NCBI GenBank assembly: GCA_039794045.1
Contig: JBAMLY010000008.1
Location: 1-34,489, forward strand
Direction: 5' to 3'
DNA length: 34,489 bases
From: Candidatus Micrarchaeia archaeon
Lineage (GTDB): Archaea > Micrarchaeota > Micrarchaeia > Norongarragalinales > UBA8480
Part shown: positions 25,901 to 31,900 of the stretch, one piece after another
Layout: every line of letters begins with the position of its first letter
Numbering within the stretch: the first letter of the stretch is position 1
Program-made: the position numbers

Positions 25901-28900
25901 CAAAGAGCACGCTGCCACGCTTTATTTTGACTCCCACAGCGAAGGCACCCCAGCGCGCGGATTCAATCGATTGCCCCGCAACCAATCCAGGCATTCCAAG
26001 CTGTTGCCAAGCCTCCTGCGCCTTGAAAGGCATGACAGGCGAAGCAAGAAGAGTTACAACGCGCAGCGACTCATGCAAGTGCGCGAGCACTGTCTTCAAG
26101 CGCGCATCGTTGTTTTTAGCGAGCGCCCACGGCTCGGTGTCGGAAGCGTACTTGTTTGCCGCCCTCACGAGAACCCAGAGCTTCTCGAGGCCGTGGTGAA
26201 ACTCCATTTTTTCAAAGCACTCAACGAACTCGTCGCGCGCCTTCAAAGCCATGGAAGCCAACTCTTTCTCGGGGTTTCCTTCAACGCCGCTAGCCGGAAC
26301 GACTCCGCCAGCGTAACGCTCTATCATAACGAGAGTGCGGTTCAACAAGTTTCCGTACTCTGCAGCTAAGTCGTTATTCAAGCGCTGCACGAGAGCGTTT
26401 TCGCTGAAGTCACCGTCAGCGCCTACAGCGATTTCGCGTAGCAAGAAATACCTTAGCGCGTCGGCGCCGTACTTGTCGGCGAGCTTGTGAGGGTCAACGA
26501 CGTTCCCAAGGCTCTTGCTCATCTTCCTGCCATCGACTGTGAGCCAGCCGTGCGCGAAAACTTTTTTCGGCAAAGGCAGTCCAGCAGCCAAAAGCATTGC
26601 CGGCCAGTAGACGGCGTGAAAGCGAAGAATTTCTTTACCAATTACGTGAACGTCGGCAGGCCAAAACTTTTTCTGTCTCTCGATGTCGCCGTCGAAAGCA
26701 AGCCCAGTCCAGTAATTAAACAACGCGTCAAACCAAACATAGGTGACGTGGCTCTCGTCGAACGGGAGGGGAATACCCCACTTGAGTGAGGCGCGGCTGA
26801 TTGACAAGTCCTTCAACTCGTCCTTGAAGAAGTTTATCACTTCAGGCGTCCGGAAGGAAGGCTCTACGAAGCCAGGGTTTTCATGGAAGTGCTTCAGCAG
26901 CGGCTCGCGGTACTTAGACATTTTGAAGAAATAGCTTTCCTCTCTCTGGCGCGAAACAGGGCGGCCGCAGTCCGGACACTTTCCGTCCACGAGCTGAGTA
27001 TCAGTAAAAAAGCTCTCGCAGGGAAGGCAGTACCACCCCTCGTAAACTCCCTTGTAAATGTCGCCTTCGTCGTAAAGCCTTTGCAGGACTTGCTGCACTT
27101 GCTTTTCGTGGTAAGAGTCAGTAGTGCGAATAAAGTGGTCGTACGAAATGCCTAGCTTCGCCCAAAGCGCTTTTATTCCAGGAATCAATTCGTCCACGAA
27201 TTGCTTGGGTGGTTTTCCAGCGGCTTCAGCAGCGCGCCAAACCTTTAAACCGTGCTCGTCGGTTCCAGTCAAGAAAAAGACTTCACTACCTTGCATGCGC
27301 TTGAAGCGCGCCAGTGCGTCAGACAATATAGTAGTGTAAGCGTGTCCTATGTGCAGCGGCGCGTTAGTGTAATAAAGCGGAGTAGACAAGTAAAACTTCA
27401 TGAAATTGTTTTCAACACAGCCAAATATATTTTTAAGCGTAAGCAAATAAAAAAGAATTAAGTGCCGGCAGTCAAACAAAAAAACTGGATAGAGGCGAAC
27501 AAAAGAAATGGGATTGATACCAGACACCGTTTTTTTCACGAAAGGAGTTGGAAAACACAAAGAACAACTTCACTCTTTCGAGCTGGCGTTGCGCGACGCA
27601 GGAATAGAAAAGTGCAACCTCGTCACGGTTTCAAGCATTCTTCCTCCAGGTGCTGAAATAATTCCCCGCAAGATAGGAGAAAAACTCTTGAACCCAGGTG
27701 AAATAACTTTCGTGGTGATGAGCCGCAATGCAACAAACGAGCCAAACCGCTTGATTGCAGCATCGATAGGCGCAAGCATTCCAGCAGACAAGAGCGCTTA
27801 CGGTTACTTGAGCGAGCACCACTCGTTCGGCCAAACAGAAGAAAAAGCAGGCGAGTACGCTGAAGACTTGGCGGCATCCATGCTAGCTTCCACGCTTGGC
27901 TTGGAGTTCGACCCAGAACAAAGCTGGGACGAAAAAGAGCAAACATTTAAGTTGAGCGGCAAAATCGTGCGCACCACCAACATAACCCAGTCCGCCATAT
28001 GCGACAAGAATGGCTTGTGGACGAGCGTCGTGGCCGCCGCAGTCTTAGTATTCAATGGGAAAGAGAAAATTAAGGCACTAGCAGAACAAAACGGACAACA
28101 ACAACTAAAGCAAGAGCAAGCCCCACAACCCGCTAACCCCCCAAGCAAGTGAGTTCAAGGAAACTCCAGCGTTTTACGCAATTCGGTGGTCTTCTTCTTC
28201 AACTCCTCGTCCAACAACGCCACTGCCTCGTCCTTTTTCTCCATGAAGCGCCTTGGAGTTTTCTTCAAGCCACTCTGCAACAGAGCATGTACGTAAAACG
28301 GCAACACTGCCGTAACGTCTGCGTGAACGTACTGCGAGTTCACAACGCATTCCGCGCTCGTCTTACCCCACGTGTGCCCTTCCCCTGCAGTGCAGGAAGA
28401 AAGAGCGCCATTGTCAACGTTGGCGTCACAAATTTGGATGTCGTAGTCATAGCCATTCGTTTCAATGAAGAGAATCTGCGATAAAGTGGGCTCTGGTTGA
28501 AGCGAGTAGTTCTTGGGAACACCGCCGCCCACTACTACAACGGCAAGCTTTCTGGAGTCATGGTTCTTCGCGTAGTAGTGCAAGGCCGCGAACTCGTAAA
28601 CGTCGCGCGCCAAGTCAAAAGAAAACTTGAAGTCCTTCACGCCCAGTGCTGAAAGCCTGGCGAGCTTTACGGCGTTCAAGAAAATCGAGCCGTCCTGCGG
28701 CGCGCCACAAAAAACTGGGACTTTGTTGAGCGCGGCTTGCACGAGAATGCTGTTGCTCTCGCTTGGCTTAGCCCCCCACTGTTCAATCAGTCGCGCGAGG
28801 TCCAAGCCCAACTGGTAGTGGAACTCTGGCGTCGTCATAGTGCGCTGGTAGGGAGGCTGGCTCAACAAAAACGAAAAAAGCTTGTCGGTGTCAAGCAACA

Positions 28901-31900
28901 CTTTCTCGTCGAAGCCAATGTCGTAAATGCGGATTACTTTGTTTTTGCGGTATTCCGTGTCACTGAAGAAAGGGTTTACCGCATAAAGCTTTTTTCCGAT
29001 CAAGCGGTGCACGTCATGGTACAAGTTAGCGCCCGTCGTCGTCAAAACATCTACCACTCCTTTCTTAATCAAGGGAACGACGCACGAAGTACCCAAGTCC
29101 GCCGGCGTCATGGCGCCAGACATCGTCAAAACGATTGCGCAATCTTCTTCCACCATGCGCTCCAAAATTTTGTAGCCGTTGCGCAACTGCCTGCCCACGA
29201 AAGCAGGGAAAGCGTTTTCAATCAATTCCTTTGTAGTCTCCTTCCCAGTTATTTGTTTAGTTTCAACTTCCGGGCCCATTAAGTGCTTGTTCTTGCTCAA
29301 GAATACCACTCCCAACCAAAAAAGTTGTAAAGTCTTTTTAATAGTAAGACAAACAAATATTTTGTGGTGCAAGGTGGTTGCTTGGAATTGTTTCACTCTA
29401 AAGCAAAATACGATTTTTGCGGCGCTGGAAAGCCTTTCGACGAATGCAGGGTGGTAGTGCTCCCCGTCCCATACGACGCGACCACCTCTTACGGCGGCGG
29501 AGCGCGGGATGGCCCCCACGCAATAATAAGTGCTTCGCGACAGCTTGAACTCTACGACGAAGAACTCGGCTGCGAGCCGGCCGCTAAAGGCTTTTACACT
29601 TTGGACGAGCTCGAGCCTTCCACGGATGGCCCTAAGCAAACTATTGAGAGAGTCGAGGAAGCAGTCGAAGCAATACTTGAAGCAAAGCGTTTCCCGGTAA
29701 TGCTGGGCGGAGAACACTCTCTCACGCTCGGTGCCGTGGAAGCAGCAAGAAAAAAACACCCTGAGATGGGCGTGCTGCAGTTTGACGCGCACGCTGACTT
29801 GCGCGACGAGTTCGAGGGAAGCAAGTACAACCACGCCTGCGTAATGCGCCGAGTAAGCGAGAAAGGAATAGCTTGCGCGCAAGTGGGAGTTAGAAGCGTA
29901 ATCCAAGAAGAAATAGATTATGCCGCAAAAAAAGGAAACCGCATTTTCTACGCGATCGAGAAAGCAAAATGGAAAGCCGAAAAAATTGCGGCAAGCCTGC
30001 CACGCGAAGTATACGTGACATTCGACTTGGACGCATTAGATTCATCGCTTATGCCTGCCACCGGCACTCCCCAGCCAGGCGGGTTGTCTTGGAGTGAAGC
30101 AACTTTCTTGTTGCGTGAAGTGATGGCGAGAAAAAAAATAATTGGTTTGGACGTCATGGAGCTCGCGCCGATTCCAGGAATGCGGGCACCAGACTTCGTC
30201 GCAGCAAAACTAGCTTACAAAATGATTGGCTACGCTTTATGCACTCAAAAAAACAATAATTTTAAATAAGTTAAAGCAATAATACTACTGCTTTTTTAGT
30301 GCCTCACTTGACACCTTAAAGCAGCGCAAAACATTTTCCTACAATTTAGTTTACAGGAGGTAGATTTCCATGCAGCAACAAATGGCGGGAAACCCGCAAA
30401 TAGTAATGCTTCCAGAAGGAAGCAGCCGCGTCCTAGGCAGGGACGCTCAACGCACAAACATAGCCGTGGCTTACGCTGTCGCTCAGGCAGTAAAAAGCAC
30501 GCTCGGCCCCCGCGGCATGGACAAAATGCTGGTAAGCGAGCTCGGCGACATCGTAATCACGAACGACGGCGCGACAATCCTTGAAGAAATGCACATAGAG
30601 CACCCTGCAGGCAAGATGATGGTAGAAATCGCTAAAACTCAAGACCAAGAAGTAGGCGACGGAACTACCACCTCAGTAGTGCTCGCAGGAGAACTCTTGA
30701 AGAACGCAATGGAACTCCTCGACCAAGACATTCACGCTTCCACCATAATAAGCGGCTACAAGCTCGCTGCAAGCAAGGCGCTCCAAATCCTGAACGAAAT
30801 AGGCATGGAAGTCAAGATAAGCGACACGAAAACCCTTGAAAAAATAGCGAGCATCAGCATGGCAAGCAAGACCGTGGGAGCAGGCGCTGGAAAAGACCAC
30901 TTGGCTTCCCTAGTAGTAAAAGCAGTGACTCAAGTCGCAGAAAAACGCGACGGCAAAAACTTCATCGACAAAGACTACATCAAAATAGAGAAAAAACAAG
31001 GCGGCGACATCTTCCAAACTACAGTCATAAACGGCGTCCTCATAGACAAGGAAGTCGTCCACCCAGGAATGCCAAAAAAAGTTGAAAACGCGAAAATCGC
31101 TCTCTTGGACGCTGCCCTCGAAATAGAGAAAACCGAAACCGACGCTCGCATCAACATCAACTCGCCAGAGCAAATGACTGCCTTCCTAGAACAAGAAGAG
31201 AAAATGCTGAAGGAAATGGCGGAGAAAGTCGTGAAAAGCGGAGCGAACGTCTTGTTCTGCCAGAAAGGGATAGACGACGTCGCGCAACACTACCTCGCAA
31301 AACAAGGAGTTGTTGCTTGCCGACGCGTCAAGAAAAGCGACATGGAGAAACTCGCACGCGCGACCGGCGCGCGCATCGTCACCACTCTAGACGACTTGAC
31401 TCCCAAAGACTTGGGCTTTGCAGGCACTGTTGAAGAACGAAAGATCGCGGGAGAGCAAATGACTTTCGTTGAAAAATGCAAGGAACCAAAAGCAGTAACC
31501 ATCTTCATTCGCGGAAGCACGAACCACGTAGTAGACGAAGCAGAACGCGCGGTAAATGACGCCCTAGGCGCAGTCGCGAGCGCCATAGAAGAAGGCAAGT
31601 ACACCGCGGGCGGCGGCTCAATCGAAATGGAGGTAGCAACACGCTTGAAAAAGTACGCAGTTGAAGTCGGCGGACGCGAGCAACTAGCAATACAATCCTT
31701 CGCAGAAGCACTTGAAGTCATTCCACGCACTCTAACCGAGTCATCAGGCATGGACCCAATCGACACGCTAGTAGAACTGCGCGCCAAACACGAGAAAAAA
31801 GACGGCATCGTCTACGGCGTAGACGTAATCAAAGGCAAAGTGGCAGACATGCTAGCGCTAAACGTAATAGAGCCACTGAAAGTGAAAAAGCAAGCCATCC

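Follow-up and report, generated by a model that had tools for sequence, protein, structure and literature searches.

A Micrarchaeota gene cluster with a bacterial-type SpeY as a candidate agmatine-based homospermidine pathway

Background

Homospermidine can be produced by relatives of deoxyhypusine synthase (DHS). In the SpeY/CdmS-DUH pathway of T. thermophilus and diverse bacteria, two agmatine molecules are joined by SpeY into N1,N9-bis(guanidino)homospermidine (G44G, also called diagmatine or caldomycin), and double ureohydrolysis follows, as described in two studies (Kobayashi 2024, PMC10981699; Li 2026, PMC13625781). In the latter, every tested SpeY, from diverse phyla, makes G44G, and the tested set includes a Caldilinea cluster that also encodes a pyruvoyl arginine decarboxylase (ADC) of the PdaD type. 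The same study describes SpeBs linked to SpeY as cleaving G44G and not agmatine, and DUH is defined there by activity on G44G and inactivity on agmatine (Li 2026, PMC13625781).

In archaea, clusters of speDA-speY-speB (or aguA-aguB) have been found in Ca. Woesearchaeota, Ca. Diapherotrites and Marine Group II/III, and inter-domain gene transfer was proposed for them (Li 2023, PMC10407285). Deoxyhypusination without spermidine has been proposed for Haloferax, with homospermidine named as a possible and agmatine as the preferred donor (Prunetti 2016, PMC5178350). Similar speY clusters are thus already published for archaea, DPANN included (2023), and the novelty that a genome-wide survey's note had seen in spermidine-free archaeal hypusination is pre-empted by these two studies (PMC10407285; PMC5178350).

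The locus and its closest relatives

The window analysed here is a 34,489-nucleotide stretch from a DPANN-sized Micrarchaeota genome of 655,099 bp (16 contigs, 92.12% complete). The three genes on which the survey's note had reported are real and lie at the coordinates it gave, and Pfam and NCBIfam models confirm their families. The features are as follows.

27508..28152, plus strand: pdaD, pyruvoyl-dependent arginine decarboxylase, 214 aa (PF01862, TIGR00286)
28155..29300, minus strand: speY-type paralogue of the deoxyhypusine synthase (DS) family, predicted G44G (diagmatine) synthase (PF01916; best model NF001980)
29301..29363, no strand: intergenic region shared by the divergent speY and speB, identified by inspection of the sequence
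29364..30269, plus strand: speB-like agmatinase-family ureohydrolase, 301 aa, predicted G44G (diagmatine) ureohydrolase (PF00491, TIGR01230)

These genes form a cluster but not a single operon, because the middle gene, speY, is oppositely oriented; the lack of co-orientation counts against the homospermidine reading proposed below. speY converges on pdaD, leaving a gap of 2 nt, and 63-84 nt separate it from the divergent speB. Its start may be a TTG at 29300, giving 381 aa, or an ATG at 29279, giving 374 aa; the TTG start agrees with the database gene call and with the length of the orthologue in G058, a genome compared below. A TATA-like AT-rich stretch, TTTTTAATA, lies at about 29335-29344, some 25 nt upstream of the speB GTG. 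Archaeal TATA boxes usually stand at such a distance from the start, and from this spacing the stretch may be a putative speB promoter element. By our own arithmetic, assuming about 700 genes and one copy per family (canonical DHS aside), both partners would flank SpeY by chance with a probability of (2/699)x(1/698), or about 4e-6.

With the SpeY/CdmS-DUH pathway the locus has all three enzyme families in common, among them the archaeal-type pyruvoyl ADC exemplified by the pdaD-type cluster of Caldilinea aerophila (Li 2026, PMC13625781), as well as the catalytic Lys, Glu and Trp, the loss of both acidic spermidine-binding residues and the predicted order of reactions. It differs from that pathway in its host, a DPANN archaeon that retains canonical DHS and aIF5A, in a SpeY clade that scores under both NCBIfam equivalogue cut-offs, and in gene orientation. 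Like the clusters of Li 2023, it would be a homospermidine-type cluster in archaea including DPANN; unlike them, its decarboxylase is PdaD (PvlArgDC fold) and not a neofunctionalised SpeD, its phylum is Micrarchaeota, and its SpeY appears to be a bacterial xenologue that took the place of an older DS-family paralogue at the locus. Haloferax volcanii likewise lacks a working spermidine route and has PdaD, an agmatinase-like gene, canonical DHS and a further member of the DS family, and it raises the same question of the aminobutyl donor. However, the agmatinase-like gene clusters there with aIF5A and DHS and here with the second DS paralogue.

Gene products and the predicted pathway

PdaD matches PF01862 at 207.2 bits and TIGR00286 at 133.4 bits, above the cut-off of 106.95, and it reaches 204.3 bits with NF009064, just below the cut-off of 207. 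It contains a Ser42-Ser43 pair within a VSSILP motif, which we take to be the self-cleavage (self-processing) site, and its C-terminal tail of about 30 aa is rich in Q and P.

The SpeY-type protein matches PF01916 at 193.5 bits (cut-off 27). Its top NCBIfam model, with a lead of more than 110 bits, is NF001980, 'homospermidine biosynthesis protein', at 299.7 bits and under the cut-off of 450; NF002699 (G44G synthase) gives 134.1 bits, under the cut-off of 500. Falling below both cut-offs, it therefore belongs to a clade in which no biochemically tested member was identified, and this too speaks against the homospermidine reading. The catalytic lysine is retained as K306 (K299 in CdmS, K329 in human DHS), with E300 and W304 six and two residues upstream, and the equivalents of all three are invariant in 39 aligned relatives. 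At the positions of the spermidine-binding D243 and D316 of human DHS, whose numbering was taken from the alignment, the protein has L201 and L293, and N257 stands at that of H288. The characterised CdmS of T. thermophilus has F204 and L286 at the two Asp positions (PMC10981699). NF002699 equivalogues of the same taxonomic order as the window genome (558-588 bits, above the cut-off of 500) have F at the D243 position, C or L at the D316 position and, like the window SpeY, N at the H288 position. Canonical archaeal DHS, too, has Leu at the D316 position, and the D243 position alone discriminates within the window genome; the DHS of S. solfataricus, with T and L at these sites, nevertheless uses spermidine (PMC7773846). 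Pocket residues are thus weak predictors of substrate, a further point against the homospermidine reading.

The ureohydrolase matches PF00491 at 233.1 bits and is the sole arginase-family gene found by a six-frame search of the whole genome. Its translation contains GGEHS, DAHAD and DLDALD, presumably the metal-ligand motifs. With the TIGR01230 'agmatinase' model it scores 259.1 bits, above the cut-off of 174.3.

We consider it probable that the cluster encodes an agmatine-dependent homospermidine pathway of the SpeY/CdmS type. By predicted specificity, PdaD would convert arginine into agmatine, the SpeY-type paralogue would use NAD+ and K306 to join two agmatines into G44G, and the neighbouring agmatinase-family enzyme would strip both guanidino groups as urea, yielding homospermidine as the sole triamine that the cell makes itself. 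The survey's note had already suggested a homospermidine pathway; its order of decarboxylase, SpeY and ureohydrolase stands as the best reading, but the SpeY chemistry is agmatine-based and not putrescine-based in the two biochemical studies (PMC10981699; PMC13625781).

The TIGR01230 match would also suit a classical scheme, in which putrescine, released by SpeB as a true agmatinase, serves the DS paralogue for making homospermidine, with or without spermidine; eukaryotic DHS and plant HSS are described as forming homospermidine from spermidine and putrescine (PMC13625781). Such a scheme is highly improbable. All SpeY homologues tested turn agmatine into G44G and need a ureohydrolase to reach homospermidine, and a canonical agmatinase would deplete the substrate of SpeY (PMC13625781). 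Moreover, six-frame Spermine_synth and AdoMet_dc searches revealed no encoded source of spermidine.

Polyamine genes and the aminobutyl donor for hypusine

The polyamine inventory was taken by six-frame HMM searches of the whole genome. They gave no match for Spermine_synth, AdoMet_dc, Orn_Arg_deC_N (AR-fold decarboxylase), PAD_porph (agmatine deiminase) or SBP_bac_8 (PotD-type binding protein, the sole transporter family searched), and one sub-threshold match of 20 bits for Sacchrp_dh_NADP. The reported absence of spermidine synthase and SAM decarboxylase is thereby confirmed for a 92%-complete genome, a completeness that itself counts against the homospermidine reading. The description of the cluster as the only polyamine route holds as far as these searches reach, with no rival pathway genes detected.

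Archaeal DHS and aIF5A indeed lie away from the cluster, at C11:12244-13083 and C1:51392-51811(-), respectively (C, contig). The DHS matches PF01916 at 310.2 bits and TIGR00321 at 288 bits, just below 304.25, and has K308, H267, E302 and W306. aIF5A was found by motif, having been missed by the PF01287 six-frame search; Pfam confirms it with IF5A-like_N (63.4 bits) and eIF-5a (33.4 bits), and it carries a TGKHG loop with the target lysine. With its catalytic Lys and His, and with aIF5A in the genome, the C11 gene is predicted to encode a canonical archaeal deoxyhypusine synthase.

The earlier proposal that the C11 DHS, in acting on the C1 aIF5A, draws on homospermidine from the cluster as its physiological aminobutyl donor appears unlikely. 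The six-frame searches, which found neither a spermidine route nor a PotD-type binding protein, are in its favour. Published reports name homospermidine as a donor that DHS might use (PMC5178350), describe an in vitro interconversion of deoxyhypusine and homospermidine by DHS (PMC9117371), and note that Paramecium species have homospermidine in the place of spermidine (Li 2026, PMC13625781). In addition, seven of the 61 DHS-like sequences of the order combine Asp at the D243 position with Leu at the D316 position, and a second DS paralogue is present in all seven genomes. However, these genomes (G000, which is the window genome, G049, G053, G054, G056, G057 and G059) all belong to one family, f1, and represent one evolutionary event, and S. 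solfataricus DHS without that Asp still uses spermidine (PMC7773846). A DS-family match, almost always canonical DHS, occurs in 66 of the 68 genomes of the order, none of which has a convincing spermidine synthase (best match 42.4 bits, partial), and the second DS paralogue is missing from eight of 22 high-quality genomes (G052, G006, G009, G011, G024, G025, G030 and G062). From this distribution, DHS in this lineage works without a self-made triamine. The comparative data argue that homospermidine is not required as hypusine donor, a role that is not favoured here.

It is possible, if somewhat doubtful, that agmatine itself feeds aIF5A modification, as in the Haloferax model; pdaD and speB would then mainly serve modification of the translation factor and speY would merely add free polyamine, which is compatible with the agmatine-based homospermidine pathway. 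The scheme preferred for H. volcanii, an organism with an essential agmatinase-like gene, has agmatine as the donor, but it is offered as a model, and agmatine use by archaeal DHS comes there without biochemical demonstration (Prunetti 2016, PMC5178350). Within the order, many genomes have a decarboxylase gene directly adjoining canonical DHS: in 13 of 61 DHS loci it is a membrane-domain/AdoMet_dc-like fusion, and in G007, G017 and G062 an AR-fold decarboxylase. Genus g3 of family f1 has PdaD, SpeB and DHS without the second DS paralogue, and the window genome has a single arginase-family gene. Against this, that ureohydrolase adjoins speY and not DHS or aIF5A, and SpeY-linked ureohydrolases are inactive on agmatine, a protein-bound guanidino intermediate lying outside the assays (Li 2026, PMC13625781).

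The donor, spermidine or another polyamine, might instead be scavenged from a host, with the cluster product serving nucleic-acid or membrane stabilisation or a similar role; this we regard as improbable. Organisms of DPANN size, among which a 655-kb genome falls, are usually host-dependent, and G001, another genome of the order, has a DHS whose D/D pocket is fully eukaryote-like. On the other side, the search for a PotD-type binding protein, the one transporter family covered, found none.

Origin of the three genes

The cluster had been regarded as horizontally acquired, which stands for the bacterial-type SpeY but not for the cluster as a unit, since PdaD and the ureohydrolase fall among their Micrarchaeota counterparts. 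PdaD is 79% identical to that of G059, a genome of the same family, and belongs to a clade of 21 rows (SH-aLRT 96) in which every identified member comes from Micrarchaeota of the window genome's order; its 66-67% identity to proteins of green sulfur bacteria is explained by the strong conservation of the subfamily and by the absence of DPANN entries from Swiss-Prot. The ureohydrolase has Burarchaeum and Micrarchaeota as nearest named relatives (60-62%) and clusters with the other SpeBs of f1, the family of the window genome.

SpeY is 80% and 73% identical to its counterparts in G058 and G057, and the next relatives are bacterial at 51-59%. It belongs to a 3-row clade (support 98) nested in a 29-row, otherwise bacterial clade (99), and 79 of the 80 closest loci in genome_contigs are bacterial. 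This clade includes Myxococcota, with Myxococcus and Corallococcus, Bipolaricaulota, Patescibacteria and WOR-3. To our knowledge bacteria lack aIF5A, and the mostly bacterial SpeY clade therefore probably acts on small molecules and not on a protein. M. xanthus is described as a producer of homospermidine lipids (PMC9548883, citing Hoffmann 2018).

The association with pdaD and speB is not general in the SpeY clade. Two Patescibacteria loci have a colinear pdaD-speY-speB operon, and both partners flank speY in the window and likewise in G058, but 77 of the 80 closest loci have no PdaD- or SpeB-like neighbour in flanks of up to 5 kb. This rarity of partners in the clade is another point against the homospermidine reading, as is the identity of only 51-54% between the window SpeB and its counterparts in the two genomes whose SpeYs match the window SpeY at 73-80%.

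Gene order is MetRS, PdaD, SpeY-B and SpeB in the window genome, MetRS, PdaD, an ODC-like gene, DS-D and SpeB in G059, and PdaD, an ODC-like gene, SpeY-B and SpeB in G058. Between G058 and G059, PdaD is 87% and SpeB 77% identical, and the DS genes only 32%. Judging from these comparisons, SpeY is probably the only bacterial import among the three genes, and its gene apparently took over the site of an older DS-family paralogue in a resident locus adjoining MetRS. pdaD and speB would be resident Micrarchaeota genes of that locus, and speY a bacterial-clade xenologue that took the same position in the ancestor of two genera.

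The Gene Cluster and the Polyamine Genes of the Genome

The three genes of the cluster reported in the genome-wide survey's note are real, and their positions were confirmed as follows (Pfam families and NCBIfam models with their scores in brackets).

27508-28152, + strand: pdaD, pyruvoyl arginine decarboxylase (PvlArgDC, 207.2 bits; TIGR00286, 133.4 bits, over the cut-off)
28155-29279, or to a TTG at 29300, - strand: speY, gene of the deoxyhypusine synthase (DS) family (DS, 193.5 bits; NF001980, 299.7 bits, below the cut-off of 450)
29364-30269, + strand: speB-like gene of the agmatinase family (Arginase, 233.1 bits; TIGR01230 agmatinase, 259.1 bits, over the cut-off)

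The TTG start gives SpeY 381 aa, which is the length of the database gene call P0002 and of the orthologue in G058, a genome of the same family. NF001980, named "homospermidine biosynthesis protein", is the top NCBIfam model for SpeY by far. Because speY is opposite in strand to both pdaD and speB, the three genes form a cluster and not one operon. Each of the three proteins has its nearest named relatives in "Candidatus Micrarchaeota", which places the genome among the DPANN archaea.

The genome (655,099 bp in 16 contigs, 0.03% contamination) is 92.12% complete, and six-frame family searches of this assembly gave zero matches to Spermine_synth, AdoMet_dc, Orn_Arg_deC_N, PAD_porph and SBP_bac_8, and a single sub-threshold match of 20 bits to Sacchrp_dh_NADP. 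The same searches found one arginase-family gene, that of the window, and two DS-family genes, namely the window speY and a canonical deoxyhypusine synthase (DHS) on contig C11 (310.2 bits). The aIF5A gene lies on contig C1, carries the TGKHG loop and is confirmed by Pfam; it was overlooked by the six-frame search with PF01287, so that a lone negative search of this type can fail with short domains. The gene inventory of the survey's note therefore holds, both in the lack of Spermine_synth and AdoMet_dc matches and in the presence of DHS and aIF5A. As a further consumer of agmatine, the agmatidine synthase TiaS was considered. Its TiaS_FLD domain was not found in the 92%-complete genome and was detected in 4/4 control archaea; it may be absent from the assembly or too divergent to detect.

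A Probable Homospermidine Pathway

CdmS, the SpeY-type DS homologue of T. thermophilus, converts two agmatines into bis-guanidino homospermidine, from which a ureohydrolase then produces homospermidine (Kobayashi 2024, PMC10981699). N1,N9-bis(guanidino)homospermidine (G44G, or diagmatine) is described as the product of all SpeY homologues examined from diverse bacterial phyla, one of which comes from a Caldilinea cluster also encoding an archaeal-type pyruvoyl arginine decarboxylase (Li 2026, PMC13625781). In the same report, the "agmatinases" linked to SpeY are active on G44G and inactive on agmatine.

With the C11 DHS aligned to human DHS as the residue ruler, the catalytic K306, E300 and W304 are kept in the window SpeY. 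Leu occupies both acidic spermidine-binding positions, D243 and D316 of the human enzyme (F204 and L286 of CdmS), and Asn stands at the H288 position, as it does in the true NF002699 equivalogues of the order. Among the 80 closest SpeY loci, 79 are bacterial. Bacteria are not known to have aIF5A, and thus the SpeY clade must act on small molecules. Myxococcus, a member of this clade among the 80 loci, makes homospermidine lipids (PMC9548883).

Taken with the published chemistry of CdmS and SpeY, the residues and the bacterial small-molecule clade suggest a route from arginine to homospermidine. PdaD would convert arginine to agmatine, SpeY would form G44G from agmatine, and the SpeB-like ureohydrolase would convert G44G to homospermidine. 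The homospermidine pathway proposed in the survey's note agrees with all this and with NF001980 as the best model, the three specificities being predictions from sequence. The "agmatinase" of the window thus probably acts as a diagmatine ureohydrolase and the "second deoxyhypusine synthase" of the genome as a G44G synthase, with homospermidine, not spermidine, as the predicted product. Spermidine is the product assumed in genome surveys of Micrarchaeota (PMC8407392). The practical value of this reading is correct annotation of the ureohydrolase, the DS paralogue and the polyamine product.

DS-Family Clades and Replacement of a Paralogue in Place

Six separate DS-family clades occur in the order (loci L005-L046 and L151-L198): canonical DHS, type B of the window, a very divergent type C of ~325 aa, type D of 356-386 aa, the NF002699 equivalogues (G44G synthases) and an NF002006 type. 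In type C, which stands on a branch of length 3.1, the catalytic Lys is retained, and the H288 and D316 positions are occupied by Asp and Tyr, respectively. The family is present in 66 of the 68 genomes of the order, nearly always as canonical DHS; only a DS paralogue was seen in G015 and G039. By our own count, ~29 genomes hold a non-canonical paralogue. In G058 (88% complete), canonical DHS was not found. The top DS-family match there (L158:1475-2767 on G058:C31; 298 bits, 430 aa) has an N-terminal extension of 140 aa, Asn at the H288 position and Leu and Ser at the D243 and D316 positions, and these residues argue that it is not canonical DHS.

The window SpeY is 80% identical to that of G058 and 73% to that of G057, of the same family; beyond these two, identity is 51-59% to proteins of Bipolaricaulota, Patescibacteria, WOR-3 and Myxococcota. 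A quick IQ-TREE tree of 70 DS-family rows was built, from which duplicate loci and rows below 250 aa were omitted, as were 54 of the 80 bacterial loci. The three Micrarchaeota SpeY proteins form one clade (SH-aLRT 98) within a 29-row clade (99) that is bacterial apart from them and is set off by long branches from the five other DS clades of the order. PdaD belongs to a 21-row clade (96) of a 60-row tree, and the members of this clade, where identified, all come from Micrarchaeota of the order; PdaD of Bacteroidota, Ignavibacteria and Patescibacteria falls in the other half. For the ureohydrolase, the top named matches are Burarchaeum and Micrarchaeota (60-62%), and it clusters with SpeB proteins of the same family (supports 80 and 92). 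The gene order at three loci of this family is as follows.

Gene order at the PdaD-SpeB locus (strand in brackets)
Genome under study, window 25887-30269: MetRS (-), PdaD (+), SpeY of type B (-), SpeB (+)
G059, locus L029 (G059:C8): MetRS (-), PdaD (+), AR-fold ODC-like (+), DS paralogue of type D (+), SpeB (+)
G058, locus L017 (G058:C70): PdaD, ODC-like gene, SpeY of type B on the opposite strand, SpeB

MetRS anchors the locus in the genome under study and in G059, and the AR-fold ODC-like gene has been lost from the former. G058 and G059 belong to one genus. Their PdaD and SpeB proteins are 87% and 77% identical and their ODC-like genes share 789 of 861 self bits, whereas their DS genes are just 32% identical. 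From this synteny, it appears that an older DS paralogue of a resident locus gave way to a bacterial SpeY. The horizontal acquisition claimed earlier thus stands for SpeY, nested in a bacterial clade, but not for the cluster as a unit, since PdaD and SpeB group with Micrarchaeota. The locus is a clean case of single-gene xenologous displacement within a conserved archaeal locus.

Transfer of the whole cluster from Patescibacteria was also considered, as they are the only bacteria with a colinear pdaD-speY-speB operon (2 of the 80 closest SpeY loci, both Patescibacteria; SpeY stands alone within the flanks examined in 77). This origin was rejected because the Patescibacteria PdaD and SpeB lie in clades other than those of the window and their SpeY is not sister to the window SpeY. 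Base composition gave no signal of transfer, GC being 0.47-0.52 across the cluster and ~0.51 for the contigs. After speB of one of these operons, a second, very divergent DS-family gene was observed (L056:4644-5765, end branch 1.53).

The Donor for Hypusine

Of the 68 genomes, 16 have PvlArgDC, 35 have AdoMet_dc-like genes (0/12 genomes of f1, the family of the genome under study), 52 have the Arginase family and 26 have AR-fold decarboxylases. Spermine_synth matches occur in 23 genomes, all of them partial and at most 42.4 bits. They were rejected as spermidine synthases, since the 20 scoring above the family cut-off span only positions ~37-155 of the 186 in the profile, and they would be generic methyltransferase folds. 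With DHS near-universal, no real spermidine synthase, and canonical DHS without a second paralogue in 8 of 22 high-quality genomes, it appears that DHS in this lineage works without self-made spermidine or homospermidine.

The genes beside DHS bear on this point. At 13 of 61 DHS loci, a fusion of a membrane domain and an AdoMet_dc-like domain lies directly upstream of canonical DHS, often overlapping it (e.g., L006:542-1456 in G018). The fusion protein of ~300 aa is hydrophobic over its N-terminal half (~190 aa) and carries an AdoMet_dc domain at the C-terminus (83 bits, ESH motif). The membrane part alone is found at 6 further DHS loci, and no real spermidine synthase was found in genomes with either form. 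AR-fold decarboxylases adjoin DHS in 3 more genomes. Such decarboxylases beside DHS fit an agmatine-type donor, which has been proposed for aIF5A modification in Haloferax (Prunetti 2016, PMC5178350).

The survey's note proposed instead that homospermidine from the cluster feeds hypusine formation, which we consider unlikely. Among the 61 DHS of the order, the residues at the D243 and D316 positions are Leu/Leu in 42, Asp/Leu in 7 and Asp/Asp in one (G001, locus L005, fully eukaryote-like), the rest being other combinations. The Asp/Leu pocket is confined to f1, and all seven genomes carry a second DS paralogue, in favor of a homospermidine donor; however, the seven represent a single lineage. 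Pocket residues were also rejected as a predictor of the donor, since spermidine is used even by S. solfataricus DHS, which has Thr/Leu and lacks the Asp (PMC7773846), and since Asp/Leu also occurs in P. horikoshii DHS (7cmc). A bolder version, to which we give little credence, is that homospermidine from an interchangeable SpeY module supplies f1 DHS with its aminobutyl group. Hypusination would then be naturally spermidine-free and coupled to a DS paralogue exchanged at a single locus no fewer than three times (types B, C and D), and the D243-equivalent Asp, kept only in the DHS of genomes with such a module, would be a trace of the coupling. If true, this would answer the question in Li 2026 of whether DS enzymes that depend on agmatine and others that depend on a triamine coexist in archaea.

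Spermidine-free hypusination in an archaeon is not new, contrary to what had been suggested: spermidine-free deoxyhypusination is already in print, in a paper that mentions homospermidine as a potential donor (PMC5178350), as are archaeal speY clusters (DPANN and Marine Group II) together with DPANN-CPR gene exchange (Li 2023, PMC10407285). In the literature searched, no publication joining Micrarchaeota and homospermidine was found. What is new is the host, a member of the Micrarchaeota, along with a partner of PdaD type in an archaeal cluster and the replacement of a DS paralogue in situ. The donor of archaeal DHS has been an open question since 2016 and was raised anew in 2026; with near-universal DHS, no spermidine synthase and six DS clades, the order is a good testing ground for it.

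Other Features of the Window

The window also contains an rRNA operon (16S at 6970-8629, 23S at 9332-12287) and an RNase P RNA match at 14556-14875. The 16S match covers 1660 nt against a model of 1478 positions, probably due to an insertion. A tRNA match at 22779-22936 is 158 nt long against a 71-position model and probably contains a long intron; ARAGORN reported just 11 tRNAs in the 655-kb genome and none on the window contig. The 1-kb segment 21001-22000 is unlike the remainder of the window, with an AT skew of -0.41 and a GC skew of +0.19.
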